Origin: a virus
Taxonomy: Duplodnaviria; Caudoviricetes
Direction: 5' to 3' (one strand)
Virus record (IMG/VR): IMGVR_UViG_3300027971_000029
Span: 32,001 to 96,000 of that record
DNA: 64,000 nt
Both the position numbers and the translations under genes were made by a program. The notes beneath the pieces were generated by a model. That model saw only the letters and a program-made list of their open reading frames with translations, was not told where the DNA came from and did no database searches. Positions 20,550-53,109 of the stretch are shown piece by piece. Each line of letters starts with the position of its first letter. Position 1 is the first letter of the stretch.

Positions 20550-20575
20550 AATAAACTCCTTGTTGTAAAAAAAAT

Positions 20576-28847: not shown

Positions 28848-29063
28848 TCAGTCATTTTTATTGAATTTGATGCTTTCACCACGCAGGAATACACCAATCA
28901 GAACAATGGCACACCATGTATCAAAAGTGTATGGAATAGCCAGAGCAGGAAAAAGTATATTCAAAGACCACAGAACAAAAAACGGTGATATAAAAATGAA
29001 TACGATAGCCGCTAGTGCAATCAATGCCATAACAGCAGGCGATTTAACTTTAATATTAAACAT
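28848..29063 (-). CDS. Small membrane protein
   Basis: Two hydrophobic segments. Confidence 0.6.
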   Translation of the reverse strand: MFNIKVKSPAVMALIALAAIVFIFISPFFVLWSLNILFPALAIPYTFDTWCAIVLIGVFLRGESIKFNKND

Positions 29064-29069
29064 AGAACC

Positions 29070-35043: not shown

Positions 35044-35345
35044 ACAGTTCCTTCGATAATGGTTAGTGAATCTTCATCATCATAACCATTTGGAACTACC
35101 TCTTCACCGTAAGTCAATTTATACAGATTAATAATTCTGCCAAAATTTCGCATGTAACGATTAACAATCTGAGTAACACGATTACGAGAAAGACCGTGAC
35201 GGCGACCAACTTCTGCACATGTTTCGTTATGGTAGAGTACCTCAGCGAGAATACTCATATCTCGACCACGCCGCTGATGTTCAGAAAAGATACCAACTAG
35301 TTGTTTTTTATACAACTCATATTCGGGTTGGGAAAGGGTAGTCAT
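35040..35345 (-). CDS. Sigma70 region-4-like HTH protein
   Basis: ETCAEVGRRHGLSRNRVTQI resembles the TLEEVG..F.VTRERIRQI HTH; start moved to 35345. Confidence 0.55.
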   Translation of the reverse strand: MTTLSQPEYELYKKQLVGIFSEHQRRGRDMSILAEVLYHNETCAEVGRRHGLSRNRVTQIVNRYMRNFGRIINLYKLTYGEEVVPNGYDDEDSLTIIEGTV

Positions 35346-35352
35346 ACAAATC

Positions 35353-35616
35353 CTAGTTATCGAATTCACAGCCGATATCAGCGGTATCGGCTTCATACTT
35401 AGCAACCGCCGATTTTGCATCGGACACAAAACTGACATATTTGTGTTCAAGGATAACACGGTCACGGATAGCACCATACACCACCACAGGTGTATCAAGA
35501 ACAACAGTGTGGACAACCTCACCGCCGTATGCTACACGGCTGAGTTCCACAACACCTGACACGGCGATTTCGCCCATGTAGAGACCAGTAACTGACATGT
35601 TTTCAAGATTCCACAT
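35353..35616 (-). CDS. Hypothetical early protein
   Basis: First ORF after promoter 35649-35677. Confidence 0.65.
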   Translation of the reverse strand: MWNLENMSVTGLYMGEIAVSGVVELSRVAYGGEVVHTVVLDTPVVVYGAIRDRVILEHKYVSFVSDAKSAVAKYEADTADIGCEFDN

Positions 35617-35648
35617 TTTCGAAAGTCCTTATCAACTGAACAGATTAC

Positions 35649-35677
35649 AGTATACTCTACATGGGTAGAAATGTCAA
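35649..35677 (-). promoter_or_regulatory. Early sigma70 promoter
   Basis: TTGACA-N17-TATACT. Confidence 0.8.
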
Positions 35678-35707
35678 GCAGAAAAAGTTGTTATTTTTGT
35701 TGTATTT

Positions 35708-36274
35708 TCACAACGGAACCGGAGCATAACTACGGGCCCAAGAAGTACTTTTCCGATAAGGGTGTTCATCCGCTAAATCCCATGCTTGTGACACTAATGA
35801 AGATTTTAACTCAGGTATAATACCCAAAAAGTGATAATATTCACCACTCGGTTTATCAGCCCACATTGCATCAGCAAACTGTAAAAAAGGTTCTTCAGAC
35901 AAGTCTTTTTTTATGGTGTGAAATTCATCAATAGTCAAATTGAACCATTCACCTTTTATTTTTTTTTCACGATACTTGTCATGTAGAAAATATTCAACAT
36001 TAAAGGGTTCAAGAATTTCAGGAGAAATTTTATCCACATATAGTTTCACCCAATTACCCGAAGAAAAATCTTTAAGGCGATTCGATACTCCCTTGATAGT
36101 TTTCGATACCCCGATTTTAACCGGACATTCACCGATACCTTTAAACCATTTTTTCGGCACTTCCTCTGGGCGAATCAAATAAACATGCCCCGAATTTAAA
36201 CGCATAGCCCGCTGGTCAATTGGGCATATATTGTCATTATAAAAACCAAATTCACGAGACTCAAACATAATCAA
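35708..36274 (-). CDS. GIY-YIG-like (T5orf172/MUG113) nuclease
   Basis: HVYLI..VKIGVS..RLK..GN..VE..LH..KGEWF. Confidence 0.8.
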   Translation of the reverse strand: MIMFESREFGFYNDNICPIDQRAMRLNSGHVYLIRPEEVPKKWFKGIGECPVKIGVSKTIKGVSNRLKDFSSGNWVKLYVDKISPEILEPFNVEYFLHDKYREKKIKGEWFNLTIDEFHTIKKDLSEEPFLQFADAMWADKPSGEYYHFLGIIPELKSSLVSQAWDLADEHPYRKSTSWARSYAPVPL

Positions 36275-36649
36275 TCCTCTTTCATTTTACTCAGAATAGA
36301 CAAGCGAGGAAGTACCATTTTCCTCTAGTGTAGTGAATGGACAACCAAAGTGCATGATATCACGCCCTTGAATATCTTCTTCAACATTCAGAAATTCCAC
36401 TTCTTCAGTAGAATGATACTGTAGACAATGCTGGCAGTATACTTTGAAATATCTTTCCATTTCACAACTCCAAAACAAAGGTGGTTGTTCCGTCAGGATG
36501 AACATGTTTTGTTACAATGCGCCAGCCACTCTTACTGAATTCCGCAAGTTTCTTTTTAGTGTAACTAGGCTTGCCATTAATCACTTTCCGTAAAACGGCA
36601 ATTTCATTATCGATAATCATACCAGACTCCGTAAAACCTCTAGTCATAA

Positions 36650-37408
36650 TTAAGCCGCTTTCAATAACATAACAGTAGGATACTTCACAAAACCAGTGGT
36701 GTCTTTTTTAGCCTTGCCTTTTGCGTACAAGCCAACAATAACACCATGCGGGTCAAGGAATCTTAAATCGGATTCATCGCCGTTAAACACAGGAATACCC
36801 ATGTAAGTCTCAGGCATCGGCAGGGTTTTCTTGATACCGAAAACAGTAGCAATATTGTAACCTTGTGCAATAGCCTTAGCAACATCCGCATCATTTCCAT
36901 CAGCCGCTGAGAATGTCAATTGATAATTCTCATAGGTAACAGTCTTACGACCAAGAATTTTGGTGTAGTCATAGAATTGGCAATCAGGAAATGCAGAGAA
37001 AATATTGCGATACATCACACCGTCACGGACTACTTCGTATTTTTCGAATGCGATATCCGAAGTACCATTCAAACGGAACACAGGAATCATGTCGATTTTA
37101 CCAGCTTGCTTGATAGCCAACTCAATGTCTTTCACGAGCATAGCCATGAAGTCAACACGGTTCTCGAAAAACATCTTGGTTTTGCGAATACGAGCCTTTT
37201 GAATCACATTGGTGGTTTCACCTTTTTTGAACATACCGCCACGACCAGCAGTATTCAGGCAAGCGGCTGTACAACCAGCGGTTCGTTTAGCGCAGGTCTC
37301 ATAACCACTCAGGTTTGCTGGCGCTAGGTGCAGAATGTAGGTCATGTAACCTTGCGACATTCCTTTAAGGACTTTGGGATTTCCGACTGAAAGTAATTTC
37401 ATATACAC
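36650..37408 (-). CDS. GP88-like phage protein with Cys cluster
   Basis: TCAKRTAGCTAACL, FRLNGTSD, QFYDYTK and GDESDLRFLD motifs. Confidence 0.7.
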   Translation of the reverse strand: MYMKLLSVGNPKVLKGMSQGYMTYILHLAPANLSGYETCAKRTAGCTAACLNTAGRGGMFKKGETTNVIQKARIRKTKMFFENRVDFMAMLVKDIELAIKQAGKIDMIPVFRLNGTSDIAFEKYEVVRDGVMYRNIFSAFPDCQFYDYTKILGRKTVTYENYQLTFSAADGNDADVAKAIAQGYNIATVFGIKKTLPMPETYMGIPVFNGDESDLRFLDPHGVIVGLYAKGKAKKDTTGFVKYPTVMLLKAA

Positions 37409-37428
37409 CTCTTAACTAATCAGACTAC

Positions 37429-39947
37429 AGTATACCTCATATGGGTACAATTGTCAAGTGTTTTTTTGTTGTATTTTTACAACATGTCCAATTGAATTTG
37501 GTATGACTGCTCTTTCATTTCATGGTCGAATGTTCGTATTGTAGTACCAACACCACCACAATTCTCAGTCTTTATGATATGCAACGCATTGAGCAATGCT
37601 GTGGTTTGTGTGGTGAAAGGACCAGCAACAAGGTCTTGAATTGTTGTAATATAGCCAACACCATTGACAATAGCACGAACCCGTTGGCTGTTTTTGAAAC
37701 CAGGAACACTTTGTTTAGTACGCATATACAATCCTCAATTAAACATAAAAGTCGGAAGTGAGACCAAGTTCATCATAGACCATCTCACGGACTACAGTGT
37801 CAAAGGCTTCGGCAAATTGTGCATAATTAGCGAGTTTGCGGAGGTCAGCCTCAACATCAGGCCAAGGGCTTTTAACCGCTTTGTGATACATGACAAGACC
37901 AGAGACAGCTTTGGCACCGTCTTTAGAGAACATACCGTATTTCATCTTTTTTCCTTAACCGAGGGTTTTAACAGAACCTGACACGGAAGCACCAATCAGG
38001 ACCAGGATACTAAAAACACAGAGAATCGTAAACATCTTTTTTCCTTTTCAATCTCAACTAACTTAACTACAGTATAGCGCAAATCGGTAGAAATGTCAAG
38101 TGTTTTCTTGTTGTATTTTTGCAACACTATGCAAATTCATAAAACTTAACGGAAGGGTCAAGTTTTTGCAGTTCTTTAGCGGCTTTGGTCAAAGTCTTGT
38201 AACGAGCCTGTACTTGGCTACGGCTCAGTTCACCGTCACAAGTCAGGTTTTCGGGACTCAAATCCGAATCGATGCTATCAGCAATGGATTGGCGGTCAGC
38301 GGCATTTTGCAAACTTAGTTGTCGGCTACCGAAGATTTTAGCAAATGCATTTTTTCGGTCAACATAGGCAGTGAGGGACATTTTGTTTCCTTTTCGATTA
38401 ATCAGACTACAGTATACACCAGATTGGTAGAAATGTCAAGTGTTTTTTACGCACTAATTTCAAAAAGTTTGCCTTCGCAACCTGATGTTACAGTGATTTT
38501 TTTGCCACCGATTGTGATGTAGCCGTAGCAACCATCATCATAGATGCCGAAAGGGCAGGGTTCGATTGTCACGGACCGAACAATCTCGCAAAACCCCCAC
38601 CGCTTTGTGGGCAGGGTGCCACCGAAATACCTCATATTTTCTATGGAGGTGATTAGGACTTTTGCTTTCATCGGTGACCTTTCTTACTAACTTAACTACA
38701 GTATAGCGCAGTTCTACCGATTTGTCAAGTGTTTTTAATGTATACTTTAGTGTATACGGGAAACATCATTGTTCCATCGGGTCGCCAAGTGTGTACTCAG
38801 TAATCCACTCAATGGTAAATTTTTCGCCTTTGTGTTCTTTCACATAGGAAATCATTGTATCAAGGTCACGGAAAATCAGGCTTCCGAGTTCATTCGTAAT
38901 TCTAAACATTATTTTCTTTCAAAGTAGCGATAAGGGAGACCGTTCAGGAAACAGAAGTATTCCCAGTCACCATTGGCGGTGCTAGCCTCCATAATCCAAC
39001 GAAGTGCAGTTTCACGGTCACGAGCACCCATGCAAATGGTGTTGATAACATGCTGTTCGAAGTTCTTTACAGCGGTGGCTTCAGCGGCTTCACGAGCCAC
39101 AGCCTCTGCATCGATAACATTAGCGAGTAAGTCAAACTCAGCCATGAAGTCAGCTTCGGTCCAGCTGGAAGTGTCGATACCACGAGGGCGAACACCATAG
39201 GCGTCCTTGTACATGTCCCAGTACTGGCACTGCAACTGCTCTAGGACAGTCATCTCTTCCCAGCTTGTAAAAACTTCATTCATATCAATTCCTTAGTTCG
39301 ACCAAAAAGATTCGGAACGGGGTGAGCAATGGTACGGTGTATCGTATCGTTCTTGGAATTCTTTACCAGTCATCAGATTACGAGTAGTCACAAAGGTTGC
39401 GAACACTTCAACGACAAAACCATTCTCACGGATGCTATCAGCAACGGACTTGATAGCGGCATCGGTGGAAGGTGCAAAATCACGCACTTCAACCAAACGG
39501 CGACCTGCTTTGGTACGCTTATCGGTCTTGTAAATTTCGAGGGTGTATTCTTTCATTGCAGACATTTGGTTTCCTTTTCTTACTAACTTAACTACAGTAT
39601 ACAACAGATTGGCACACTTGTCAAGCAATAAAAGTTGTTATTTGCCAGTAATTTTTCAACTGGCGACCTCGGGGATCCGATCCCTCTGTCTTAATCGTAC
39701 AAGCACTCAAAGGCGTATTGTTCATCACTCATGGTCTGAGCCGCAAGCAAATCAACAGAAATCACTTCGAGAAAGGACTCAACCTGTTCAACAGGAAACT
39801 TCACAATCTCAGCAATCTCAGCACTATCGTAACCAGCACAGGCTAGTTCTTCGATACTGAGGGCTAGGTCGGACATCTTACTCATTTTTTCAACTCACTT
39901 TTTTGCTAACTTGAATGTATTATAGCGCAATTCGGTACAATTGTCAA
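37429..39947 (-). promoter_or_regulatory. Cluster of near-identical early promoters, each preceding 1-2 small ORFs
   Basis: TTGACA-N17-TATACT/TATAAT at 37429-37457, 38071-38099, 38411-38439, 38700-38728, 39596-39624 and 39919-39947, mostly followed by GTAGT. Confidence 0.85.
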
Positions 39948-40753
39948 GCACTATTTGTTGTTATTTTGCTCAAGCGCCAGCGACTTTGATAGTTGCAACT
40001 CCTCTTGCAGTTCTCGCTGATTCAACTGTTCGCCAATCTCAATCAGCAACTCATGCAAGGCTTCGGTTTTGAGGTACAGGTTGTCGATTTGTGGGTCATA
40101 CAACCTAGTGAATGTTCTCAACTTCCAATCTACAGCATCCACCGCTTGGCAGAGTTCATTGTACTTGGCGTTAATTTCATCAATGTTTTTCATAGGTTCA
40201 CCTTGCAAATAACAATCTCAACTCATAACGAGCACCTAAACGGCTAGAGAACCAACGGGCTAAGCCGCTATCATAGTCTTGGCAGAGACCAGTGTTCCAT
40301 CCTGTTGCTGGTGGTGTGGGGTGTGTCGTTTTCATAGGTGTATTATATCGCAACTCTGCCGATTAGTCACACACTATAGTTGCGATTTACTTGCTACGGC
40401 GATATTCTTTTCCGTCTATGATAAGCACATGGTTATAGGAATCAGCATCGACTTCGTTCACTTTAGTTTGCAACTGTTGCAAACCTTGGTGGGCTAGTTC
40501 TATGCACTTTGTGGGACCGAGAGTAGCAATTACCAGACCCAATATGATACCAACAATAAAATGCATGTTAACGACCTCCGTTGGATGCTTTGCAATAGCC
40601 AAGATTCTTCAGTTCAGCAACTTTGTGTCCGTTGTAGGAAATGCTTCCCCGTTTCATTGGCCAAGTTCTTTCAGCAGGTCGAGCCTTGCGAGTAGCTAAG
40701 ACTGACACATAGACACCAAGTTCTTCGTTGAAATATTTGTTAACAACTTTCAT
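37477..40753 (-). other. Small early hypothetical ORFs
   Basis: 37477-37731, 37739-37945, 38127-38381, 38447-38671, 38909-39283, 39293-39628, 39691-39885, 39951-40208, 40387-40602, 40568-40753. Confidence 0.65.
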
Positions 40754-40762
40754 TGTGTTTCC

Positions 40763-41080
40763 TTAGAATGTATTCAGTGAGGGATTCAGTTCAGAAATCA
40801 ACTGTCGTTCTCGCTGGTGCGCTGGTTTGCGACCACGGACAACTTCAATCACTTGATAGGTCCATGTACAGTCACTCAGTTCACGGAGAGCCGTACACAT
40901 AGCCCATGCTTTATTCTCGCACTTAGCACGGCTCATATGCTTTTGCCAGCGGACTTTGACCGAACGGAGATATGCTTGTCCTTGCGCTACAGTCAGGCCG
41001 ATGTAGCTATCGCCAGTGTCTATGCACTCTACACGATACAGCACATGGTTTCTGTCTTGGCGGGGTTTTCTTTTCAGCAT
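40763..41080 (-). CDS. Small GIY-YIG nuclease-like protein
   Basis: VLYRVEC..GDSYIGLT..RW.KH..ERQLI..PSLN; promoter 41087-41115. Confidence 0.75.
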   Translation of the reverse strand: MLKRKPRQDRNHVLYRVECIDTGDSYIGLTVAQGQAYLRSVKVRWQKHMSRAKCENKAWAMCTALRELSDCTWTYQVIEVVRGRKPAHQRERQLISELNPSLNTF

Positions 41081-41404
41081 ATGCATATAATAGCACAAAC
41101 TGGCAGTAATGTCAAGTACTATTGTTGCGATTAAAATACACTTTCAAAATTGTCGGACATAACTTCAGCACGAGCAAACTCAACTGTATCACGAACTCGG
41201 TCTTTCATTGGGAGTTCGGAATATTCTATTTTGGTTTGGTTCTCAGATATCATTATTTGATTGGACAAATAATAGACAACTTCAAGCAATTCGGTGTAGG
41301 TGGGTTTCATAATTTTTCTGCTTTCTCAATCTATGGATAGAGTATAGCACTAAATGTCACACTTGTCAAGCACTTTTAGTTGCGAAAATACAACAAGATT
41401 TGTG

Positions 41405-44494: not shown

Positions 44495-44502
44495 AATAAA
44501 CC

Positions 44503-44859
44503 TTATGTATTTCGTGTCATTTGGCGCAAAATTCTAACATTATCATCTGGTGCTAGATAGCATCTCGCATTGATTATGGTTGAATTTTCAAGTAGATTCT
44601 CCATCTTTGTGAATTCGATTAATTTATTCTCAATCATGTATTTGACCAAGTGGTCAGCAACTCTCCATTTGATGGCATCTGGATTCAAACTGATGGTATC
44701 AAAATTTGATAATGTTATGTTCACATTAACAAGTTTACCACCAATAGCAATGTCAGTGTACTTACCAACATAATTGTTGTCCCAAACATCATTAAGAATT
44801 GTAGAACTACCGACACCACCATTCACAATTGGCAGTGCTGTAGAATTAGAAAATGCCAT
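44503..44859 (-). CDS. Hypothetical protein
   Basis: ORF downstream of the tRNA array. Confidence 0.55.
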   Translation of the reverse strand: MAFSNSTALPIVNGGVGSSTILNDVWDNNYVGKYTDIAIGGKLVNVNITLSNFDTISLNPDAIKWRVADHLVKYMIENKLIEFTKMENLLENSTIINARCYLAPDDNVRILRQMTRNT

Positions 44860-44897
44860 ATTTAATCACTCTCATAACTAACTCCTTCATAAAAAAC

Positions 44898-44981
44898 TGG
44901 TGCGAGTGGCGGGACTCGAACCCGCATACCTTGCGGCGGCAGATTTTAAGTCTGCTGTGTATACCATTCCACCACACTCGC
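44898..44981 (-). tRNA. tRNA-Leu(UAA)
   Basis: Cloverleaf, loop CTTAAAA, long variable arm, encoded CCA. Confidence 0.92.
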
Positions 44982-44986
44982 TTGAT

Positions 44987-45061
44987 TGGTCCGGCGTGAG
45001 AGAATCGAACTCCCATCAGAAGGGTAGAAGCCTACTGTACTATCCATTGTACTAACGCCAG
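44987..45061 (-). tRNA. tRNA-Arg(UCU)
   Basis: Loop CTTCTAC, CCA. Confidence 0.88.
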
Positions 45062-45067
45062 AATATT

Positions 45068-45334
45068 TTATTTGAATATTGCAGACCACTTCTGCAATTT
45101 TTGTCGTTTAAGACCTGATGCATTCAGTAATTCTTCTCGGTTAATCATACCTGATTCAACCATCAATTCAATCATGCAATGCAAGTCACCTAACTCTTCA
45201 GTTAATCGTTGCTTATTTGTACGCTCATTGTACATTTCATTTAGACCAAATCGGAAACACTTGCTAATAGCCTGTGTGACCTCTGCACATTCTTCCTGTG
45301 CAATCAACATAATTTCTCTATCAACATCATTCAT
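45068..45334 (-). CDS. MazG-like NTP pyrophosphohydrolase
   Basis: QEECAEVTQAISK..RFG..LTEELGDL. Confidence 0.75.
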   Translation of the reverse strand: MNDVDREIMLIAQEECAEVTQAISKCFRFGLNEMYNERTNKQRLTEELGDLHCMIELMVESGMINREELLNASGLKRQKLQKWSAIFK

Positions 45335-45392
45335 TGTGCTTTCTCCTAATGAATGCATTATAACACAACCACACAGACTTGTGTGGCAATAA

Positions 45393-45476
45393 TGGTGCCC
45401 CAAGAGAGACTCGAACTCTCAATCCTTTCGGCACTGGTTTCTAAGACCAGCGTGTATACCATTCCACCATCGGGGC
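45393..45476 (-). tRNA. tRNA-Leu(UAG)
   Basis: Loop CTTAGAA, long variable arm, CCA. Confidence 0.92.
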
Positions 45477-45503
45477 ATAAATTTGCATTGCTTTTAAATT
45501 ATA

Positions 45504-45698
45504 TTCAACATCTCGTAGCCAGGATTCTGTTTTTACCCTAACATTAATCTTTGCCACAACCCGAATCAATAGCGCAAGTGTTGCCTGACTCTGTTTGTGT
45601 TGCTTGTTATATCACGGTAGTTTAATGCTTTCGCTCCTACACACACTTGCCACAAGTCCTGAACTTCCTCTGTTACCAGCGTTAGGTCGGATGTTGAA
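45504..45698 (-). ncRNA. rnpB: Minimal RNase P RNA (about 195 nt)
   Basis: CR-I-like GAGGAAGTTCAGGA and CR-V-like AACAGAATCCTGGCTA form P4 with a bulged U; P1 TTCAACATC/GATGTTGAA; P2 CCTAAC/GTTAGG; tiny P3. Confidence 0.8.
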
Positions 45699-45704
45699 AT
45701 TCTT

Positions 45705-45780
45705 TGGTGCTACCTAGAGGAATCGAACCTCTTTCAATGGTTCTTCAGACCACCGCTATGACCACATCAGCTAAAGTAGC
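45705..45780 (-). tRNA. tRNA-Phe(GAA)
   Basis: Loop CTGAAGA, CCA. Confidence 0.9.
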
Positions 45781-45781
45781 A

Positions 45782-45855
45782 TGGTGCTCTCACCGAGAAT
45801 TGAACTCAGAATTCATCCTTACCAAGGATGTGTTATACCACTTAACTATGAGAGC
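45782..45855 (-). tRNA. tRNA-Thr(GGU)
   Basis: Loop TTGGTAA, CCA. Confidence 0.88.
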
Positions 45856-45862
45856 GATTGAA

Positions 45863-46059
45863 TTTGTAAGTAGTTTCACCCATATTATTGAAACCATTCA
45901 CCTTAGTATATAAAGCCGGCAAGGTCTCGGTACGCCACTTGGGATACTCAACAAAGGTGCTCCGATGCGTTTACGGGACTCGAACCCGTCCTTCTTTTTC
46001 ATTAGTTGGCTCTTCGAAGAAGCCTTCTAGCGAGTCTTTCTCTTGCTGACACTTACAAA
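45863..46059 (-). ncRNA. Unassigned structured RNA (about 197 nt) with an embedded T-arm
   Basis: Closing stem TTTGTAAGT/ACTTACAAA, several internal helices, ACGGG-TTCGAGT-CCCGT. Confidence 0.6.
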
Positions 46060-46062
46060 ACT

Positions 46063-46137
46063 TGGTACCTTGTGACGGGATTGAACCGCCGACCTTCTCC
46101 GTGTAAAAGAGTTACTCTACCGCTGAGTTAACAAGGC
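46063..46137 (-). tRNA. tRNA-Val(UAC)
   Basis: Loop TTTACAC, CCA. Confidence 0.88.
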
Positions 46138-46140
46138 AAA

Positions 46141-46716
46141 TTACATAGTGGGACCGTTGCCGTTTTTAAAGCCAACGGAACCACCTTCTTCATTGATTCT
46201 CTTAATCACATCTTCAAAGAGAATTGGTCTAAAATCTGTTTGTTCTACACAAACACAATGGTAACGGGTGTCAATTTCATATTCACCCCACACTTCAGTC
46301 TTCACACGGTTTGAATGGGTGTGACCATGAATGTTTGTACCAAAACGACCTAGACTGTCACTATGAATTGGGATATGACTAAGAATCATTCCATTCATTA
46401 CATGATATGCTCTCAATTCACGAAAATGAATTCTGTATTCATCATCACGAAAGATATCATGGTTACCACGAATCAGAACTTTATCACCATTCAGCCTGTG
46501 CATGATGCTAAGTGCCTTTCGGTTGATTACAACATCACCGAGGTGGTACACTTTATCATTTGGTCGAACAGTTTCGTTCCATCGCTTGACCATTTCTTCA
46601 TCCATATCTTCTGGATTGTCCCATGGTCTTAATTTCGTTACTCCGTCATCACGAAGAAACTTACACACTCCAGCATGACCAAAATGTGTGTCACTTGTTA
46701 AAAATACTGAAGGCAT
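46141..46716 (-). CDS. Calcineurin-like metallophosphoesterase
   Basis: SDTHFGH, HLGD, RGNHD, SHIP and HGHTH motifs. Confidence 0.9.
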   Translation of the reverse strand: MPSVFLTSDTHFGHAGVCKFLRDDGVTKLRPWDNPEDMDEEMVKRWNETVRPNDKVYHLGDVVINRKALSIMHRLNGDKVLIRGNHDIFRDDEYRIHFRELRAYHVMNGMILSHIPIHSDSLGRFGTNIHGHTHSNRVKTEVWGEYEIDTRYHCVCVEQTDFRPILFEDVIKRINEEGGSVGFKNGNGPTM

Positions 46717-46739
46717 AATTTTCTCCTATTAATTCGCTT

Positions 46740-46815
46740 TGGGTTGTGCTATGAGGATTGAACTCATACTATCTCGGTCACAGCGAGAGGTGCAGACCAC
46801 TACACTAAGCACAAC
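46740..46815 (-). tRNA. tRNA-His(GUG)
   Basis: Loop CTGTGAC, G-1:C73, CCA. Confidence 0.9.
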
Positions 46816-46845
46816 CCAAAACAAATTGGTATCATAAATATAAGG

Positions 46846-47088
46846 ATGTTTTGGACCATTGTCATCATAAGCGTTGGTATTATATCACCAAACATTCAAT
46901 ATGTGGGGCAATTTACAGAAGAAGCCCAATGTACGAATGCTTTGGCAACTCTGAAGACTCAAACTTATCCACCGCAAGTAAAACTAACATGCGCTCAATT
47001 TCCTGAGCCACCGATACCTCCTGCGCCACCGCCACCAGCTAAAGTCACACCAAAAGAATCAATATCTTCAAAAGATGCTAAGAAATGA
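46846..47088 (+). CDS. Small exported/membrane protein with Pro-rich tail
   Basis: CATAAATA late promoter at 46833-46840; hydrophobic N-terminus, two Cys. Confidence 0.6.
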   Translation: MFWTIVIISVGIISPNIQYVGQFTEEAQCTNALATLKTQTYPPQVKLTCAQFPEPPIPPAPPPPAKVTPKESISSKDAKK

Positions 47089-47576
47089 TTGACCCGTTTA
47101 CAGCATTTGCATTAGCACAAGGTGCTGTTGCTGGTATTAAAAAAGCAATTGCATTAGGCAAAGACATTAATGGTCTTATACATGAATTCAGTGCATTCTA
47201 CAAAGCCGCTGATGATGTACATCACTCGGCAGTAAAAGCTAAAATAGATTCTATTCGCATGAGTAATGCTGAGATAAGTGCCAGAGCATTACAAATTGCT
47301 ATGGCATCAAGAGCATTAAGACAACATGAAAAAGAACTCAAAGACATTCTATTTTGGTCTGGTAATGCTGAAGTCTATTATGAAATGCAAGCAGAACGAA
47401 AAAGAATGATAGATGAGCGTCAAGCAGAAGAAAAAAGAGTAGAAGAGCAAAAACAAAAAGACCGTGAAGCCAAAGCAAGGGCTATGATGGGCACTCTTTG
47501 GATTATGGGTTCTCTTTGCATTGTCATACCAATGTGTACAATTCTCTTTCAACTGATAACAGTCAAACATTTATAA
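47085..47576 (+). CDS. Coiled-coil protein with C-terminal TM helix
   Basis: MIDPFTAFALAQGAV..; ATGA overlap with the upstream ORF. Confidence 0.7.
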   Translation: MIDPFTAFALAQGAVAGIKKAIALGKDINGLIHEFSAFYKAADDVHHSAVKAKIDSIRMSNAEISARALQIAMASRALRQHEKELKDILFWSGNAEVYYEMQAERKRMIDERQAEEKRVEEQKQKDREAKARAMMGTLWIMGSLCIVIPMCTILFQLITVKHL

Positions 47577-47650
47577 TGGAGCGGAGTGAGAGAATCGAAC
47601 TCTCAACGGAAGATTGGAAATCTACAGTTTTACCATTAAACTAACCCCGC
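47577..47650 (-). tRNA. tRNA-Gly(UCC)
   Basis: Loop TTTCCAA, U73, CCA. Confidence 0.9.
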
Positions 47651-47732
47651 AAATGCACCGATGCTTATTCAAGCAGAAGCAATGTTCGGTGCCACACAAA
47701 GGCAAGATTTAAAAAGAGCCTGCACTCTATAC

Positions 47733-47807
47733 TGGAGCGGGTAGAGGGAATCGAACCCTCAACTAAACCTTGGCAAGGTCTTGTGTTACCACTAGCACCA
47801 TACCCGC
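47733..47807 (-). tRNA. tRNA-Gly(GCC)
   Basis: Loop TTGCCAA, U73, CCA. Confidence 0.92.
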
Positions 47808-47810
47808 ATA

Positions 47811-48299
47811 CTACGCCTCAGCTAATTCTTGTTCAGCCAAGATTCTTTTCAGTCTATCAGCACAGAAACTTGCGGCTGGCGCATCTGGCTTGACCATTGG
47901 TGTCACATTACATGTACCTTTGATATAACCAATTGCTTGTTGCACTACGCAAGAACTTCCGTGTTCATCAGATTTGTTCAAGTCCAAATGAACTTCAACA
48001 TGTCTATCTTCAAGCACATCGGCTAACGATTGAAACAATTCTGAAACCTTGTAGACTTCAGTCATCAATCTCATAGCAGGTTTGCTTTTCTTGTGGTCAT
48101 AATCTAATTCACGAGTTAAAAAACCGAAAATCTTACAGCCATGGCGTCCATCAATATGAACTACAACAGCCAATGCATAATCTGCATACCACACGCCGTC
48201 AACTCTAACTCTTTCTGAATCAGCACCGAGATATACTTTCGTGTCAGGTCCTTGATTCACAATGAATTGTTTCACTTTTTCGATTTCAAAATTTTTCAT
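47811..48299 (-). CDS. RNase H-like YkuK-family protein
   Basis: YLGADS, RLMTEV, EVHLDLN and KPDAPAAS..AD motifs. Confidence 0.75.
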   Translation of the reverse strand: MKNFEIEKVKQFIVNQGPDTKVYLGADSERVRVDGVWYADYALAVVVHIDGRHGCKIFGFLTRELDYDHKKSKPAMRLMTEVYKVSELFQSLADVLEDRHVEVHLDLNKSDEHGSSCVVQQAIGYIKGTCNVTPMVKPDAPAASFCADRLKRILAEQELAEA

Positions 48300-48315
48300 A
48301 GATACTTCTTTCTTA

Positions 48316-48390
48316 TGGCACCCCGCCAGGGATTCGAACCCCGTCCCACGGTTTTGGAGACCGTCATGCTGCCGTTAACACCAGCGAGAT
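48316..48390 (-). tRNA. tRNA-Trp(CCA)
   Basis: Loop CTCCAAA, G73. Confidence 0.9.
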
Positions 48391-48393
48391 ATA

Positions 48394-48468
48394 TGGTCCT
48401 CTCGAAAGGAATCGAACCTTAGGTCTTTCGGTTATCAGCCGAATGCTCTACCATTAAGCTACAAGAGG
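48394..48468 (-). tRNA. tRNA-Ile(GAU)
   Basis: Loop CTGATAA. Confidence 0.9.
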
Positions 48469-48473
48469 AAACT

Positions 48474-48548
48474 TGGCGGGTCCTGAGAGAATCGAACTCC
48501 CACTCGTAGGTTCGTAGCCTACTGTAATATCCATTTTACTAAAGACCC
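48474..48548 (-). tRNA. tRNA-Arg(ACG)
   Basis: Loop CTACGAA. Confidence 0.9.
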
Positions 48549-48552
48549 ATAT

Positions 48553-48627
48553 TGGTGGTGATAGTTGGATTCGAGCCAACGACCTACTGCGTATGAAGCA
48601 GTTGCACTACCGCTGTGCTATATCACC
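48553..48627 (-). tRNA. tRNA-Met(CAU), probably elongator
   Basis: Loop TTCATAC, G1:C72. Confidence 0.85.
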
Positions 48628-48631
48628 ATAT

Positions 48632-48707
48632 TGGTTGCAGAGGCAGGATTCGAACCTGCGGTTCTTGGCTTATGAGACCAAGCGGATGACCACTTCCATA
48701 CTCTGCG
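48632..48707 (-). tRNA. tRNA-fMet(CAU)-like
   Basis: Loop CTCATAA, C1xA72 mismatch. Confidence 0.8.
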
Positions 48708-48712
48708 ACAAT

Positions 48713-48789
<77 letters not shown>

Positions 48790-48798
48790 ATAAAAACT

Positions 48799-48872
48799 TG
48801 GTGCCCCATGACAGAATCGAACTGCCGTAACCTGATTACAAAACAGGTGTAATACCATTATACTAATAGGGC
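48799..48872 (-). tRNA. tRNA-Thr(UGU)
   Basis: Loop TTTGTAA. Confidence 0.9.
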
Positions 48873-48966
48873 GAAATAGGTGTCGGGCTTCCACCGACTG
48901 CTAATCAAACTACTCTGAACTCAGAGGTGATTAATCTGCCTTGATACAATCTTCAAGGACTTTTAT

Positions 48967-49044
48967 TGGTCTGTGTGGTTGGATTCGAACCAACGGCTCC
49001 TCACTTCCAAGGCGAGATGTCTGACCTGACTGACATACACACAG
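48967..49044 (-). tRNA. tRNA-Pro(UGG), second copy
   Basis: Loop CTTGGAA, C1:G72. Confidence 0.82.
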
Positions 49045-49050
49045 ATAAAA

Positions 49051-49124
49051 TGGTGGAGGATAAGAGAATCGAACTCTTGTGACTAACTTGCAAGGCTAGT
49101 ATAATACCATTATATGAATCCCCC
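49051..49124 (-). tRNA. tRNA-Ala(UGC)
   Basis: Loop CTTGCAA, G3.U70. Confidence 0.9.
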
Positions 49125-49180
49125 GAAATATGTGATTGACTACTTATCTCATTATACGCCATCAATCAAGGCGAGTTATA

Positions 49181-49256
49181 TGGCTCCACAGGGTGGGTTC
49201 GAACCACCGACCAAATGATTAACAGTCATCTACTCTACCGACTGAGCTACTGCGGA
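49181..49256 (-). tRNA. tRNA-Asn(GUU)
   Basis: Loop CTGTTAA, G73. Confidence 0.92.
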
Positions 49257-49262
49257 ATATTC

Positions 49263-49625
49263 TTAAACTAAATCGTGTGTCAAATTTACGCTAGTCGAGT
49301 AGTAGCCGTTAGACTCACCAAACCAACGAACATCAACATAACCTTTGCGTGTTGCAAATTTGTAGAATGTCCACTCAACACACTCGTGGTTCATAGCATC
49401 AAACTCAACTGGTGTTTCACCTGATACCTCTTCAGCCATCAATAGTGGTTCACCTTCTAAGTCTGACAAGTCACCAACGATATCTTCTATCGAAACAGAC
49501 TCACAACAATCTTGGTAATGAAGGAAAGTGAATACTTCTTTATCATTAGCAAATGTCATTGTTTCGCCATCTTGTGTCACCGATGTGAACACTTTACCTA
49601 TCATATTCTCTATATTCATTTTCAA
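49263..49625 (-). CDS. Conserved phage hypothetical protein
   Basis: HYQDCCESV.IEDI.GD..WTFYKFAT.KG.V..RW.GESNGYYS. Confidence 0.75.
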   Translation of the reverse strand: MKMNIENMIGKVFTSVTQDGETMTFANDKEVFTFLHYQDCCESVSIEDIVGDLSDLEGEPLLMAEEVSGETPVEFDAMNHECVEWTFYKFATRKGYVDVRWFGESNGYYSTSVNLTHDLV

Positions 49626-49642
49626 CTCCTTACAAAAAAACT

Positions 49643-49717
49643 TGGCGGTTCGTAGGGGTAACGATCCCCTTCTTTATGCGTGACAGGCATATGTGCGTCC
49701 ATGAACACTTACGAACC
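49643..49717 (-). tRNA. tRNA-Asp(GUC)
   Basis: Loop CTGTCAC, G73. Confidence 0.88.
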
Positions 49718-49721
49718 AAAT

Positions 49722-49807
49722 TGGTGGAGACAGATGGATTCGAACCACCGTGCTTTTTACAGAACAGATTTACAGTCTGCCGCCTTCAGCCACTCGGCCA
49801 TATCTCC
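49722..49807 (-). tRNA. tRNA-Tyr(GUA)
   Basis: Loop CTGTAAA, long variable arm. Confidence 0.92.
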
Positions 49808-49815
49808 AAAACTTT

Positions 49816-49890
49816 TGGTAGGGGTACAGAGAATCGAACTCTGATTAATAGGTTAAAAGCCTACTACTTTAGCCGTTAAGTTATACCCCC
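49816..49890 (-). tRNA. tRNA-Lys(UUU)
   Basis: Loop CTTTTAA. Confidence 0.9.
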
Positions 49891-49976
49891 AAACTTTACC
49901 ATAGAAAAACACATTAGTCTCAAAAAGCGTAACAGCAGTTTTCACCGACAGGCTTATGAGATAATGCGTTTATCTA

Positions 49977-50051
49977 TGGTACTCAGTACGGGAGTCGAAC
50001 CCGTCTTTCCAGATTGAAAGTCTAGCGACCTAACCGATAGTCGAACTGAGC
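49977..50051 (-). tRNA. tRNA-Glu(UUC)
   Basis: Loop CTTTCAA. Confidence 0.9.
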
Positions 50052-50064
50052 ATAAGCAATGCAA

Positions 50065-50131
50065 ATTTTTAAAGAACTTATCGATTTCTCAACCGATGCA
50101 TGAAGTATAACAGAACTGTAGGTTTTGTCAA
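50065..50131 (-). promoter_or_regulatory. tRNA operon promoter plus boxA-like antiterminator
   Basis: TTGACA-N16-TATACT (50104-50131), then GTTCTTTAAAAAT (50065-50077). Confidence 0.7.
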
Positions 50132-50182
50132 CATCTTTTTTTCATACTGTTACAAAAATACAACACAACTTCTATTTGCAAT

Positions 50183-50259
50183 TGGAGTGCGTGACAGGAA
50201 TCGAACCTGCATAAAACGGATTTGCAATCCGACACCTAACCGTTCAGTAGCACACGCAC
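50183..50259 (-). tRNA. tRNA-Cys(GCA)
   Basis: Loop TTGCAAA, U73. Confidence 0.9.
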
Positions 50260-50266
50260 ATAAAAT

Positions 50267-50345
50267 TGGTACCCTTGCTCAGATTCGAACTGAGAGAACT
50301 CTTCCTTTTGAGAGAAGCGACTTTACCAGATTTGTCCACAAGGGC
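50267..50345 (-). tRNA. tRNA-Leu(CAA) with short variable loop
   Basis: Loop CTCAAAA; 6-nt variable region. Confidence 0.82.
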
Positions 50346-50346
50346 A

Positions 50347-50421
50347 TGGTAGACTGAAAGAGAATTGAACTCTTACTCGACCGATTATGAGTCGGCTGCT
50401 TTACCATTAAGCTATCAGTCT
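50347..50421 (-). tRNA. tRNA-Ile2(CAU, lysidine-type) probable
   Basis: Anticodon arm GCCGA-CTCATAA-TCGGT resembles ileX. Confidence 0.75.
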
Positions 50422-50663
50422 TCTTTTTCTAAATCTTGTTCGAGTCTTTGTTCTTGTATCGTTTTCTCTTTGAAAACTTTTCTAGGATTACTGCACATCA
50501 CACATCTAGGATTACCACAATTCATAGCATGATGTTTTGCGAACTTGTGAGGTTCATCAACAACAATGCCGAACTCTTTAGCAATCTTAACTTGTTTCTT
50601 CACTGCATTGTCTGTTTCGAAAATGCGTTTAGAATGCTTGATTTTTTCTTCTTCATGCGACAT
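50415..50663 (-). CDS. Small basic hypothetical protein with Cys motif
   Basis: MSHEEEKIKHS..CGNPRCVMCSNPRK; start corrected to 50663 (AGGAG SD). Confidence 0.7.
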   Translation of the reverse strand: MSHEEEKIKHSKRIFETDNAVKKQVKIAKEFGIVVDEPHKFAKHHAMNCGNPRCVMCSNPRKVFKEKTIQEQRLEQDLEKED

Positions 50664-50683
50664 ACCAACTCCTTTTAAGAAAA

Positions 50684-50771
50684 TGGCAGAGAGTATCAGA
50701 TTCGAACTGATGCACCCATTTCTGAATGACGGTTTAGCAAACCGCTGGTTTAACCACTCACCCAACTCTCT
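50684..50771 (-). tRNA. tRNA-Ser(GCU)
   Basis: Loop TTGCTAA, long arm, G73. Confidence 0.92.
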
Positions 50772-50778
50772 ATAAACT

Positions 50779-50867
50779 TGGCGGAAGAACTGAGATTCGA
50801 ACTCAGGGACCTTGTTACAGTCGGCAGTTTTCAAGACTGCTGGTTTAAACCACTCACCCACTCTTCC
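50779..50867 (-). tRNA. tRNA-Ser(UGA)
   Basis: Loop CTTGAAA, long arm, G73. Confidence 0.92.
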
Positions 50868-50951
50868 AATATCATAGAAAAACACACTTCGAATACTGTA
50901 CTAAACAGAAACTATCCATCACGGGCTCCCCCGCTGAAATGTGTTTATCTA

Positions 50952-51025
50952 TGGCAGGGGATACAAGAATCGAACTTGTACTAACAGATTCAAAGTCTGC
51001 TGTGCTACCACTACACAAATCCCCA
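50952..51025 (-). tRNA. tRNA-Gln(UUG)
   Basis: Loop CTTTGAA, U1:A72, G73. Confidence 0.9.
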
Positions 51026-51039
51026 ACAAAGCAATGCAA

Positions 51040-51088
51040 ATTTTTAAAGAACTGTAGTCAGTGTAACAGAAGTCGATGCATCTGTCAA
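51040..51088 (-). promoter_or_regulatory. tRNA operon promoter plus boxA-like element
   Basis: TTGACA-N17-TACACT (51060-51088); GTTCTTTAAAAAT (51040-51052). Confidence 0.7.
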
Positions 51089-51118
51089 GCAACCTAAGTT
51101 GCTATTTTTTACAACTAC

Positions 51119-51156
51119 AAACAAAAATCCCCTAGTTTTTTAGGCTAGGGGATTTT
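51119..51156 (-). terminator. Intrinsic terminator (attenuator 3:4 hairpin)
   Basis: AAAATCCCCTAG-N9-CTAGGGGATTTT followed by TGTTT. Confidence 0.85.
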
Positions 51157-51181
51157 GGTTTATTTTGTATTGGTTACAAAG

Positions 51182-51298
51182 TTAGCAAAATCCCCATTGT
51201 GTTCCATAATCCGCACCTGTATTAATTGAGCATGGGCGTGACTCAACCTGCCAGAGTGCGGCGGGGCTTAACTTAAAGAAATGGGATATATTTTGCAT
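51182..51298 (-). CDS. Putative attenuator leader peptide containing all 20 amino acids
   Basis: MQNISHFFKLSPAALWQVESRPCSINTGADYGTQWGFC*; ATG at the predicted +1 of the promoter at 51305-51333. Confidence 0.7.
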   Translation of the reverse strand: MQNISHFFKLSPAALWQVESRPCSINTGADYGTQWGFC

Positions 51299-51304
51299 CA
51301 TATT

Positions 51305-51333
51305 ATTATATATGTTTTTTTATTGCTTGTCAA
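51305..51333 (-). promoter_or_regulatory. Perfect consensus sigma70 promoter of the leader peptide
   Basis: TTGACA-N17-TATAAT. Confidence 0.85.
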
Positions 51334-51656
51334 GTGTTTTCTTCGGAAATATTTGGATTAATTTGTAAATTTTCTACAACATGATTCCAAACTTCTTCTG
51401 ACTGCTCATCTGCAAGTGCATTTTCCAATTCTTCCACACTTGATCCATCACGAACATCTTCCCACAATTTATAGAATGAATCATCTAAATTTTTCTGAAT
51501 GTCCTCTAGCGAACCTTCAAGATAAAACAATGCCTCATTGATATCTTCAGGTGTCGATTGTTCAACACCATTAGCGATTACTCGAAATGTTGAATAGAAA
51601 GATTTAAGGCGAATTACTTCTTGTTCTAATTGGCTTAATTGATAATAATATTTCAT
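51330..51656 (-). CDS. Hypothetical acidic protein
   Basis: ORF with SD. Confidence 0.6.
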   Translation of the reverse strand: MKYYYQLSQLEQEVIRLKSFYSTFRVIANGVEQSTPEDINEALFYLEGSLEDIQKNLDDSFYKLWEDVRDGSSVEELENALADEQSEEVWNHVVENLQINPNISEENT

Positions 51657-51667
51657 AACGATTCCTT

Positions 51668-52174
51668 TTAATTTTGCGGGCTAACATAAACATTCACATT
51701 CAGCGTTGAGCCGATTTGTGCGGGGCGATTTGTACGAACTGTCATGTATCTTCCATTGTAATCTACAGTCATATTGTATCCTTCAGGTGATGATACTGTT
51801 TGATATGTGGTAAAGCATTGTGTCTGGACTTGTGATTGTTGCGACATTGATTTATCAATCTTACCGCCAACTATTGCACCAGTCACAGCACCAATTGCTG
51901 TTGATATACCTTGACCAATACCGCCACCTACTTGATGACCAAGAATGCCACCAGCAACACCACCAATCACTGTTCCTGTAGTGCCATCACTGCTAGGTGA
52001 AACTACACTCACTTGCCTACATGATTGCGATGGGACATTCTGCATTGAAAACACAGGCTCAACACTCACAACTCTAGCAACATCATGGAACTGTAATTGA
52101 TTGTTAGGTGTCAATGCATTCTGTGCAAAGACTATACTAGGTGCAATCAACAATGCAAGAACTGTCTTTCTCAT
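51668..52174 (-). CDS. Glycine-zipper 2TM exported protein (YcfJ-like)
   Basis: Signal peptide; GTVIGGVAGGILGHQVGGG..GAVTGAIVG. Confidence 0.85.
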   Translation of the reverse strand: MRKTVLALLIAPSIVFAQNALTPNNQLQFHDVARVVSVEPVFSMQNVPSQSCRQVSVVSPSSDGTTGTVIGGVAGGILGHQVGGGIGQGISTAIGAVTGAIVGGKIDKSMSQQSQVQTQCFTTYQTVSSPEGYNMTVDYNGRYMTVRTNRPAQIGSTLNVNVYVSPQN

Positions 52175-52473
52175 ACTTCTTCTCCGATAGAAAAATTGAA
52201 ACCCTTAATAGAATCCCAGCGAAATGAACGCCATTCATCTTTCTCAACATCAAACACCGATTGTGATTCTTCACTCTTCTTGCGAGTAGAGGTTCCTTTT
52301 GGAATCATATCGAAAGGAATCAAATCTTCTTTCAGTGTAGCCTTAATCACTCGCTCACTTAAATCTTTTTTAGTGAATGTGATTGACACAACACCTTCTT
52401 GCAATATGGCTCGAAGCCAATTCTTTTCTTTTTCACTCTTAAACACAAATTCATCATTCATAAACATCTCCAT
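52171..52473 (-). CDS. WYL_2/Sm-like SH3 barrel protein
   Basis: ITFTKKD.SER...ATL..VFDVEK.EWRSFRWD. Confidence 0.75.
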   Translation of the reverse strand: MEMFMNDEFVFKSEKEKNWLRAILQEGVVSITFTKKDLSERVIKATLKEDLIPFDMIPKGTSTRKKSEESQSVFDVEKDEWRSFRWDSIKGFNFSIGEEV

Positions 52474-52841
52474 TACGATTCAGACAGATACATCTTAACA
52501 CGATCCGCATAGTTTGTCAAGTAATCTTTTATCCAATTGGGCGAAGTATTGGTCTTTCTTAGAATGCAACCATAGATGCTCATGTCAGATAAATTTTTGG
52601 CATAGACAATTGGGTCACTGAAGACTGCCTCAAAGTTTTCATCAAGAATCGGCACATTGTCATCATTGGTCTTGAACAGAATTACATGATACAAGTCACC
52701 AAAATCATTGCCCTTAACTTTCAGTCCTCTAGTCTCAGCATTGTTGAATGTGAAATACTGAAACTGTGTGCTATCATCATCCTCCGGGTCTGGTACGAAA
52801 TAGAATCCATCGTAATCGGTAGGTTTAGGATGTAATGACAT
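52473..52841 (-). CDS. Hypothetical protein
   Basis: ORF in operon. Confidence 0.55.
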   Translation of the reverse strand: MSLHPKPTDYDGFYFVPDPEDDDSTQFQYFTFNNAETRGLKVKGNDFGDLYHVILFKTNDDNVPILDENFEAVFSDPIVYAKNLSDMSIYGCILRKTNTSPNWIKDYLTNYADRVKMYLSES

Positions 52842-52986
52842 GCAGTTCCTTTTGATAGTTTTGTTTGTTCTTTGGGCGTGAATACACTTTTACACTCAAC
52901 TCTACCCGTTGGCGATATTTAGGTGTGCGTAAATCTTTTGCAACTAGGTTGCGAGGTTTTAGTGAAAGTTTCATAATGTGTGCCAT
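52825..52986 (-). CDS. ArfA-like small basic protein
   Basis: Not in ORF track. ..NLVAKDLRTPKYRQRVELSVKVYSRPKNK..; AGGTG SD; promoter 53023-53051. Confidence 0.55.
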   Translation of the reverse strand: MAHIMKLSLKPRNLVAKDLRTPKYRQRVELSVKVYSRPKNKQNYQKELHVITS

Positions 52987-53109
52987 GGCTCACCTAATGC
53001 AGTGAAATGTGTCAATATGTGTACTATAACACACATTGTGCCATTTGTCAAGCACAAAAAAAAGTGTTGTTTTTACGCAACACTTTTCTGAATGACAACT
53101 AAGATTGTA

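Follow-up and report, generated by a model that had tools for sequence, protein, structure and literature searches.

The window analysed here comprises 64,000 nucleotides (nt), i.e. bases 32001-96000 of a 124.5-kb virus record (IMG/VR IMGVR_UViG_3300027971_000029) with a completeness rating of 76%. It harbours an array of 29 transfer RNA (tRNA) genes covering all 20 amino acids (44898-51025, minus strand), of which tRNA-Gln (50952-51025) is the first. The array is headed by a short leader element, i.e. a promoter, a 38-codon open reading frame (ORF) and an intrinsic terminator, which is the subject of this analysis. Coordinates are given in window numbering and the leader locus is read on the minus strand. 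The encoded proteins (baseplate hub, ribonucleotide reductase, ATPase and primase) form a set as in large tailed phages, and the runs containing the stretch are lake and freshwater metagenomes. No close cultured relative was found with the nearby ATPase, for which every cultured-phage match in tblastn was below 60% identity, and a blastn search with 801 nt against 50,697 phage records matched a tRNA-Gln only.

A gene for a 108-aa protein lies upstream of the leader and ends with its TGA inside the -35 hexamer of the leader promoter, here called P1 (51305-51333, minus strand). P1 reads TTGACA-N17-TATAAT, matches sigma-70 promoters at 12/12 positions and shows 0/29 variable columns in 5/5 full-length relatives. 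It is the sole 12/12 match within 44500-52500; in the 124.5-kb genome there are six such sites, P1 included, among 26 strong promoter sites. The motif ATGATG follows at 51301-51296, and its second ATG (51298) begins 7 nt past the -10 hexamer, which is the usual distance to a transcription start. We infer from this spacing that the +1 of P1 falls on the ATG at 51298, which would make the ORF leaderless.

The leader ORF (51182-51298, minus strand) has 38 codons (51298-51185) and a TAA stop (51184-51182), and its product, MQNISHFFKLSPAALWQVESRPCSINTGADYGTQWGFC, contains all 20 amino acids; a start at the in-frame ATG that lies 3 nt earlier (51301) would give a 39-aa version. The frame runs from the predicted first base of the transcript to the end of the stretch described below as segment 2, with the stop codon adjoining. 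A start at the predicted +1 and a stop just after segment 2 is the geometry of a leader-peptide attenuator, and we estimate from base composition that an ATG so placed and opening a frame of 38 codons has a chance of ~1%. The same 6-9-nt layout is found in two other genes of the phage: the gene for a GIY-YIG protein (40763-41086, minus strand; Pfam 23.8 bits versus a cut-off of 22.6) has an in-frame ATG 6 nt past a strong -10, and the DNA primase gene just past the window end (L042:270-1301, minus strand; phrog_47, E 2e-66) starts with an ATG located 9 nt downstream of a 12/12 promoter. Neither gene has a clear Shine-Dalgarno sequence, which suggests that leaderless or near-leaderless translation may be part of the phage's repertoire. 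Therefore, a leaderless start of the leader ORF is plausible.

Three helices can form in the leader RNA, the nucleotides of which are counted here from 51298. Segment 1 (51273-51296; nt 3-26) is the 5' strand of a protector helix and pairs with nt 90-114 in both the single-sequence and the consensus fold, its variable nt 8, 9 and 12 being bulge positions. Segment 2 (51185-51198; nt 101-114) consists of the last ORF codons and can pair either with segment 1 or with segment 3. The latter belongs to the intrinsic terminator (51117-51163), i.e. segment 3 (51145-51158), segment 4 (51122-51135) and a U-run, with a stem of 15 pairs at 51156-51124; 0/37 columns vary between 51156 and 51120, and the element also reads as a terminator on the plus strand. 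Within segment 2, GGGGATTTTG (51195-51186) is perfectly complementary to CAAAATCCCC, which is part of the terminator 5' arm, and a complement of at least 10 nt to this arm appeared in the upstream 136 nt in 2/5000 shuffles. The 2:3 antiterminator is capped by a small 6-bp hairpin (51164-51180; nt 119-135), in which all six pairs are invariant and loop nt 127 varies. Enclosed by the protector helix is an invariant 40-nt core (51219-51258; nt 41-80), in which 0 columns vary among seven aligned sequences; it includes a hairpin (nt 51-75, loop CGCCCA) of nine pairs, none of them ever variable. The word GGGGATTTT has three copies in the 124.5-kb genome, all within the leader locus.

The leader RNA folds with -58.6 kcal/mol (z = -5.4), a stability reached by 0/200 shuffles. 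Separately, the protector domain has -34.1 kcal/mol, the antiterminator with its capping hairpin -17.5 kcal/mol and the terminator -21.7 kcal/mol. The best fold of nt 1-157, i.e. before segment 4, is the antiterminator, and at full length it is the protector plus the terminator. Since the ORF occupies nt 1-114 and its stop nt 115-117, it overlaps segment 1, and a terminating ribosome would cover segment 2. The 1:2/2:3/3:4 switch architecture is thus real and beyond chance. An earlier note on this DNA had described a perfect promoter with an ATG at 51298, a 38-codon ORF using all 20 amino acids and several synonymous codon pairs, a 10-nt 2:3 complement, pairing of the ORF start with its end and a terminator at 51124-51156, and each of these was recovered. 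As to function, the explanation we favour, giving it roughly an even chance, is that the leader is a ribosome-dependent attenuator, sensing slow translation of its early codons and boosting the tRNA array.

In such an attenuator, P1 would fire at or beside the AUG and yield the leaderless RNA of a short early transcription unit. With no ribosome at the 5' end, nt 3-26 would pair with nt 90-114, the terminator would form behind this protector, and an RNA of ~175-180 nt would be released; the same terminator would also end the upstream gene row. A ribosome keeping pace would stand at the stop codon and cover segment 2, again permitting the terminator. A ribosome lagging on the first ~8-11 codons (Q, N/T, I, S, H, F, F, K, L, S) would instead cover segment 1, upon which segment 2 would be free to pair over 10 bp with the terminator 5' arm, giving the antiterminator with the small hairpin as its cap. 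Transcripts from P1 would then enter the tRNA array and add to the output of two promoters further downstream, P2 and P3. The start site, the translation of the ORF, the regulated read-through and the sensing window are all predicted from the layout.

We modelled the sensing window with a single ribosome masking a 28-nt footprint at each A-site codon, folding the RNA before segment 3 emerges. During a stall at codons 2-8, segment 1 holds 0-3/14 nt of segment 2, and at codons 9-11 it holds 7-10/14 nt. From codon 12 to codon 30 the protector re-forms behind the ribosome and 13-14/14 nt are held. At codon 31 this number is 12/14, with 2 nt of segment 2 masked by the ribosome, and from codon 32 onward the ribosome itself covers segment 2 (5/14 nt at codon 32, 14/14 from codon 35). 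In the model, the amino acids that one ribosome would sense are therefore limited to Gln, Asn or Thr, Ile, Ser, His and Phe, with Lys and Leu sensed in part. Codons 27-36 are the only place where Asp, Tyr, Gly and Thr occur. The earlier note proposed that the switch opens whichever tRNA is lacking; this is not supported, as in the model only codons 2-8, and partly 9-11, have this effect.

A similar arrangement was found in phage phiCbK (NC_019405); the comparison is limited to this phage and two of its leaders, with background windows drawn from only 6 kb that include the leaders. There, a promoter TTGACA-N17-TAGGGT is followed 7 nt later by a 32-codon ORF, MSKTYRQFVRQIQVVRNIR..., before a Phe-Val-Ile-Ile-Val-Gln-Gln tRNA block. 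Q, F, V and I are abundant in the ORF, the stop of which stands 26 nt before an annotated terminator, and a stretch within it pairs with the terminator 5' arm once the 3' arm is omitted from the fold. The annotated 45-aa gp335, rich in S, L, A, P and K, precedes a second block, Pro-Pro-Lys-Lys-Leu-Leu-Leu-Ala-Ser-Ser. Cross-tabulating block-2 and block-3 amino acids in the two leaders gave 31/1 versus 5/10 (Fisher P 5.6e-6), and the observed counts were reached in 0.14% and 1.9% of the six-frame windows of the 6-kb stretch. The phiCbK leaders and the present one share the TTGACA promoter, the ATG ~7 nt past the -10, an ORF of 32-45 codons with tRNA genes behind it, the pairing of an in-ORF stretch with the terminator 5' arm, and the gap between stop and terminator (26 nt versus 24 nt here). 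They differ in composition, each phiCbK leader favouring the few amino acids of the block behind it, with these codons clustered before segment 2, whereas the present leader is compositionally flat. Moreover, at one phiCbK block the terminator and the tRNA are too close for a promoter to fit between them, where P2 intervenes here. Because the phiCbK layout matches the leader so closely, it raises the odds of a ribosome-dependent attenuator.

As side observations on phiCbK 47000-53000 (L041), ARAGORN found an unannotated tRNA-Ala and an unannotated tRNA-Ile (AAT) at 3684-3754 and 5233-5307, and by eye there is a tRNA-like stretch at ~4545-4630, between the terminator at 4466-4503 and tRNA-Phe.

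The complete amino-acid set of the leader peptide is less telling than it may appear. The chance of 20/20 in 38 codons is 0.33% under the base composition of the genome and 0.56% under that of the ORF itself, and 349/38,784 open shuffles of the ORF bases (0.9%) reach it. The calculation proposed in the earlier note thus gives 0.3-0.9% per random ORF, a low but not compelling figure. Among the ATG-ORFs of 30-45 aa in all six frames of the genome, the leader ORF alone attains 20/20 (1/307). Since about one such ORF per genome is expected, the coverage is notable mainly for its place; it is rarer than average, not compelling. The sampling of tRNA species is ordinary, i.e. 23 (strict wobble) or 24 (loose) of the 27 phage tRNA species, with a random-ORF P of 0.064 or 0.032, and 24-25 species are sampled by other small ORFs of the genome; no codon of the leader calls for Arg-UCU, Thr-GGU or Leu-CAA. 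When the 12 variable sites of the ORF were placed at random in 20,000 trials, the frame was kept in 45% and 20/20 in 4.8%. As we read the data, the eight single-copy amino acids all lie in leader stretches that are invariant or paired as RNA, and therefore no additional selection is required to explain why 20/20 is retained. The switch probably does not read the 20/20 composition.

The idea of a pan-amino-acid sensor, a special case of the attenuator in which 20 amino acids are held so that any tRNA shortage or cleavage opens the array, has to be judged against these figures. The 1/307 count, the 0.3-0.9% chance and the retention of 20/20 in all six variants, compared with 4.8% under random placement, are in its favour, as is the array's own coverage of 20 amino acids; moreover, by analogy with phiCbK, the leaders of which mirror their tRNA blocks, a full set of tRNAs might be expected to have a full leader. 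It is countered by the stall model, in which a ribosome at codons 12-30 lets the protector re-form and one at codon 32 or later masks segment 2, with Asp, Tyr, Gly and Thr found only at codons 27-36. The unremarkable sampling of tRNA species (23-24/27, P 0.03-0.06, against 24-25 in other small ORFs), the position of the single-copy amino acids in RNA that is already invariant and the bypass of the switch by P2 also speak against it. We therefore regard it as improbable. It would be no easier to credit in the form of a complete 'test sentence', in which slow decoding anywhere would be relayed to the 5' end by queued ribosomes and P1 transcripts would flood the array. Queued ribosomes could, in principle, widen the sensing window, and for this reason we do not rate the all-20 reading lower still.

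Relatives were sought by protein-guided, pattern-guided and alignment-guided scans of viral contigs and by a pattern scan of metagenomes, which together yielded one close clade only. The set consists of seven full-length copies of the RNA, six of them distinct, with the full region present in five loci; the metagenome pattern scan added two distinct full-length variants of the wider region (identical within the RNA) and two partial ones. Two pattern scans of genome contigs gave 0 matches, and one candidate relative (L012) was discarded as a chance match within a coding region. In the five loci, 74/324 columns vary in the upstream 108-aa gene (24/14/36 by codon position 1/2/3), the protein of which has 44 homologues at 57-90% identity, compared with 12/114 columns in the leader ORF and 2/74 in tRNA-Gln. 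The leader region thus evolves in the manner of the tRNAs, unlike a protein-coding gene.

The consensus fold comprises 59 pairs, of which 0 are broken across the six distinct variants. Of the 16 variable sites, 12 are unpaired (three of them in bulges of the closing helix) and four are one-sided changes that keep the pair. A helix between nt 38-47 and 80-88, predicted by the single-sequence minimum free energy fold, was abandoned in favour of the consensus fold, being broken in 2-3/6 variants without compensation. This pattern fits a conserved structure, although it is no proof of one, as the fold was chosen on the same data. The earlier note had proposed to test relatives for short ORFs of variable sequence with 20/20 coverage and covarying stems; the frame and 20/20 are kept in 6/6 distinct variants, and two-sided changes are found at 0/59 pairs among these sequences, which are 92-99% identical.

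The same alignment bears on the possibility that the locus is an ordinary small-protein gene with a 38-39-aa product, its helices being only mRNA structure. No variant has a closed frame, a 39-aa version of 90% identity was predicted as a gene in a metagenome (P0045), and leaderless starts seem to be used by the phage. Nevertheless, substitutions fall 3/4/5 by codon position without favouring the third, and changes from P to G and from G to N are tolerated among the variants. The peptide is not hydrophobic and has no recognisable motif, and a phmmer search of 1.84 billion representatives returned, besides that one close variant, only one 352-aa repeat protein (P0046), i.e. no homologue beyond close relatives apart from one weak, repeat-inflated match. 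A small-protein gene is therefore very improbable. The E-value of P0046 (1.9e-7) is inflated by its six repeats and we treated it as a spurious homologue; its six units of ~55 aa (...EPLAAWE.DRMPCSTTTGGA...) match leader residues 10-30 weakly.

The distance from the terminator to the first tRNA is 95 nt, and this interval contains a second promoter, P2 (51060-51088, minus strand; TTGACA-N17-TACACT with a TG), in which 1/29 columns varies among five loci. A third promoter, P3, stands at 50131-50104 on the minus strand. P2 is followed by a 25-mer leader (51029-51053, minus strand; family D20) that is 100% identical to the 25-mer after P3 (50054-50078), and each copy stands directly before the first tRNA of its unit. 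The 25-mer resembles an rrn-type boxA antitermination signal. The leader element can thus only boost, not gate, array expression, as the earlier note had cautioned on account of the promoters at 51060-51088 and 50104-50131.

Metatranscriptome contigs from four runs cover parts of the locus. Three of them (51199-51514, 51201-51412 and 51237-51391) bridge P1, another (50956-51102) spans P2, and two of these pieces end beside the polymorphic site 51198. Such contigs show neither transcript ends nor strand, and DNA carry-over is possible; they therefore have no bearing on where the leader RNA starts or ends or on read-through, and gaps in their cover carry no meaning.

Since the tRNAs have a separate conserved promoter, and the leader its own perfect promoter and a strong terminator, the leader could be a free-standing small RNA gene. 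Its product, an RNA of ~177 nt that would be abundant and structured, would act in trans or bind a protein. The ORF and its 20/20 would then be incidental, and the 2:3 complementarity a by-product of two hairpins with like stems, e.g. after a duplication. The fold (z = -5.4) and the invariance of the 40-nt core, including the hairpin loop, next to a gene with 74/324 variable columns would suit such an RNA, and so would the absence of codon periodicity and of a Shine-Dalgarno sequence. Moreover, promoter-plus-terminator RNAs of <250 nt are common in virulent Pseudomonas phages, according to the available part of PMC10914365. However, this explanation needs three coincidences, i.e. the +1 ATG with 38 codons reaching segment 2 (~1%), the 20/20 coverage (0.3-0.9%) and the 10-nt complement (2/5000), and it leaves the transcript with a 38-codon ORF from its first base. 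There was neither an Rfam family nor a paralogue in the phage genome (nhmmer), and a 10-mer complement scan of that genome for targets of the leader gave scattered single matches only, none of them convincing; a recurring TTGCTAACTTT-like word had no common context and was dropped. We consider a free-standing RNA less likely than the attenuator, though a serious alternative. A released attenuator RNA could, by analogy with rnTrpL, also act in trans.

The switch could also be set by something other than a ribosome, i.e. a protein, a small ligand or an RNA (a tRNA or tRNA fragment) binding the core or segment 1/3. The three-helix platform is equally present under this explanation, the invariant core, with the long helix that closes it, is reminiscent of an aptamer with its expression platform, and the fourth genomic copy of GGGGATTT forms the 5' start of tRNA-Gln. 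No known riboswitch or leader family matches, however: at Rfam gathering thresholds only the tRNAs and the transfer-messenger RNA (tmRNA) were found, with no riboswitch, leader or small RNA family, and at E-values up to 10 the best match in 51000-51450 was ohsC, with 30 bits versus a cut-off of 50 and covering the terminator only. The closing helix of at least 14 pairs is also far stabler than the usual ligand-dependent P1 helices of riboswitches, and both the +1 ATG and the precise point at which the ORF ends would have to be fortuitous. It is thus doubtful that such a trigger operates here.

Several observations weigh against the attenuator. The leader ORF lacks a Shine-Dalgarno sequence, and a 21-33-nt leader with a Shine-Dalgarno-like motif lies downstream of 11/26 strong promoter sites of the genome. 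The variable columns of the ORF show no codon periodicity. No run of regulatory codons lies over segment 1; 10 different amino acids are found among the first 12 codons, and nine among codons 2-12. The invariant 40-nt core has no role in the model. Because the conserved P2 and the boxA-like leader follow the terminator, array expression is independent of read-through. Finally, none of the 59 pairs has changed on both sides, and since the relatives are 92-99% identical in the RNA, the conservation of structure and ORF is that of close relatives. Of the attenuator put forward in the earlier note, the architecture and the geometry stand, whereas sensing of all 20 amino acids and a gating role are not supported, the latter having been questioned in the note itself.

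Leader-peptide transcription attenuators of amino-acid operons include trpL, hisL, thrL and the multivalent 32-aa leader of ilvGMEDA. As in this type of control (see also PMC1183508), the present leader has a promoter-proximal short ORF within protector, antiterminator and terminator helices, termination is the predicted default and the stop is placed so that a finishing ribosome covers segment 2. It differs in having no Shine-Dalgarno sequence and a start that would be leaderless, in having no run of cognate codons, in standing before tRNAs in place of biosynthetic enzymes, in a protector that spans the whole ORF and in the presence of P2 after the terminator. The virulent Pseudomonas phages reported in PMC10914365, as far as the available part goes, have 42 terminators of 5' untranslated region-type short RNAs, 34 of them with two modes. 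These share with the leader a promoter, a structured RNA of <250 nt, a terminator with two outcomes and conservation within a phage genus; in contrast, they were found by transcript mapping and screened to lack ORFs led by a Shine-Dalgarno sequence, and in that part of the report none heads a tRNA array.

The trn operon of Anabaena, a spare array of 26 tRNA genes, is likewise an extra tRNA array that comes on when translation is impaired, being induced by translational stress (PMC8421152 and PMC10272220, in their available parts). Its control differs, lying with the repressor TrcR, which acts at direct repeats that overlap the -10 as well as the start site (PMC8421152, available part); the words 'attenuat' and 'leader' occur 0 times each in PMC8421152, in which no attenuator is mentioned for the array. 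In E. coli, toiL, the upstream ORF of topAI-yjhQ, reports general translation stress and not one amino acid (PMC12121999), and rnTrpL is an attenuator-derived small RNA, i.e. a released attenuator RNA acting in trans (PMC6614838). Judging from the available parts of both reports, toiL seems to work through Rho, and neither toiL nor rnTrpL controls tRNA genes. Our literature searches turned up no published leader-peptide attenuator in front of tRNA genes, nor any description of the phiCbK cassettes, and the Anabaena array is the nearest case.

Some further features of the genome are recorded here. The 5' end of tRNA-Gln, TGGGGATTT, resembles leader segments 2/4 and its 3' end, ATCCCCTGCCA, resembles segment 3; this likeness (50952-51025 versus 51120-51200) could be due to shared ancestry, to pairing or to chance. 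That segments 2-3 are a decayed tRNA-Gln was a by-eye impression only, which we rejected as no tRNA model matched there. A permuted two-piece tmRNA of the betaproteobacterial type with the tag ANDSQFALAA lies at 20552-20920 on the minus strand (RF04321, 139.8 bits; RF01850, 122.9 bits). On the same strand, 23594-41369 holds ~12 early promoters, each with TTGACA-N17-TATACT, GTAGT..., a 21-33-nt leader with a Shine-Dalgarno sequence and a small gene, an early-gene cassette that is very regular.

To our knowledge, hardly anything has been established about the regulation of phage tRNA genes. The genes themselves are now viewed as counter-measures to tRNA-cutting host defences (PMC11555353 and PMC11464382, in their available parts). 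The leader element described here is small and self-contained. If it is a trp-style attenuator before tRNA genes, the phage would gauge the speed of decoding directly and answer with tRNA supply; if, in addition, the complete leader is read, tRNAs would be topped up when the host starves or when a tRNA-cutting defence fires. If the non-coding explanation is right instead, the locus would encode a new early phage RNA that is expressed very strongly, belongs to no known family and contains the invariant 40-nt core.

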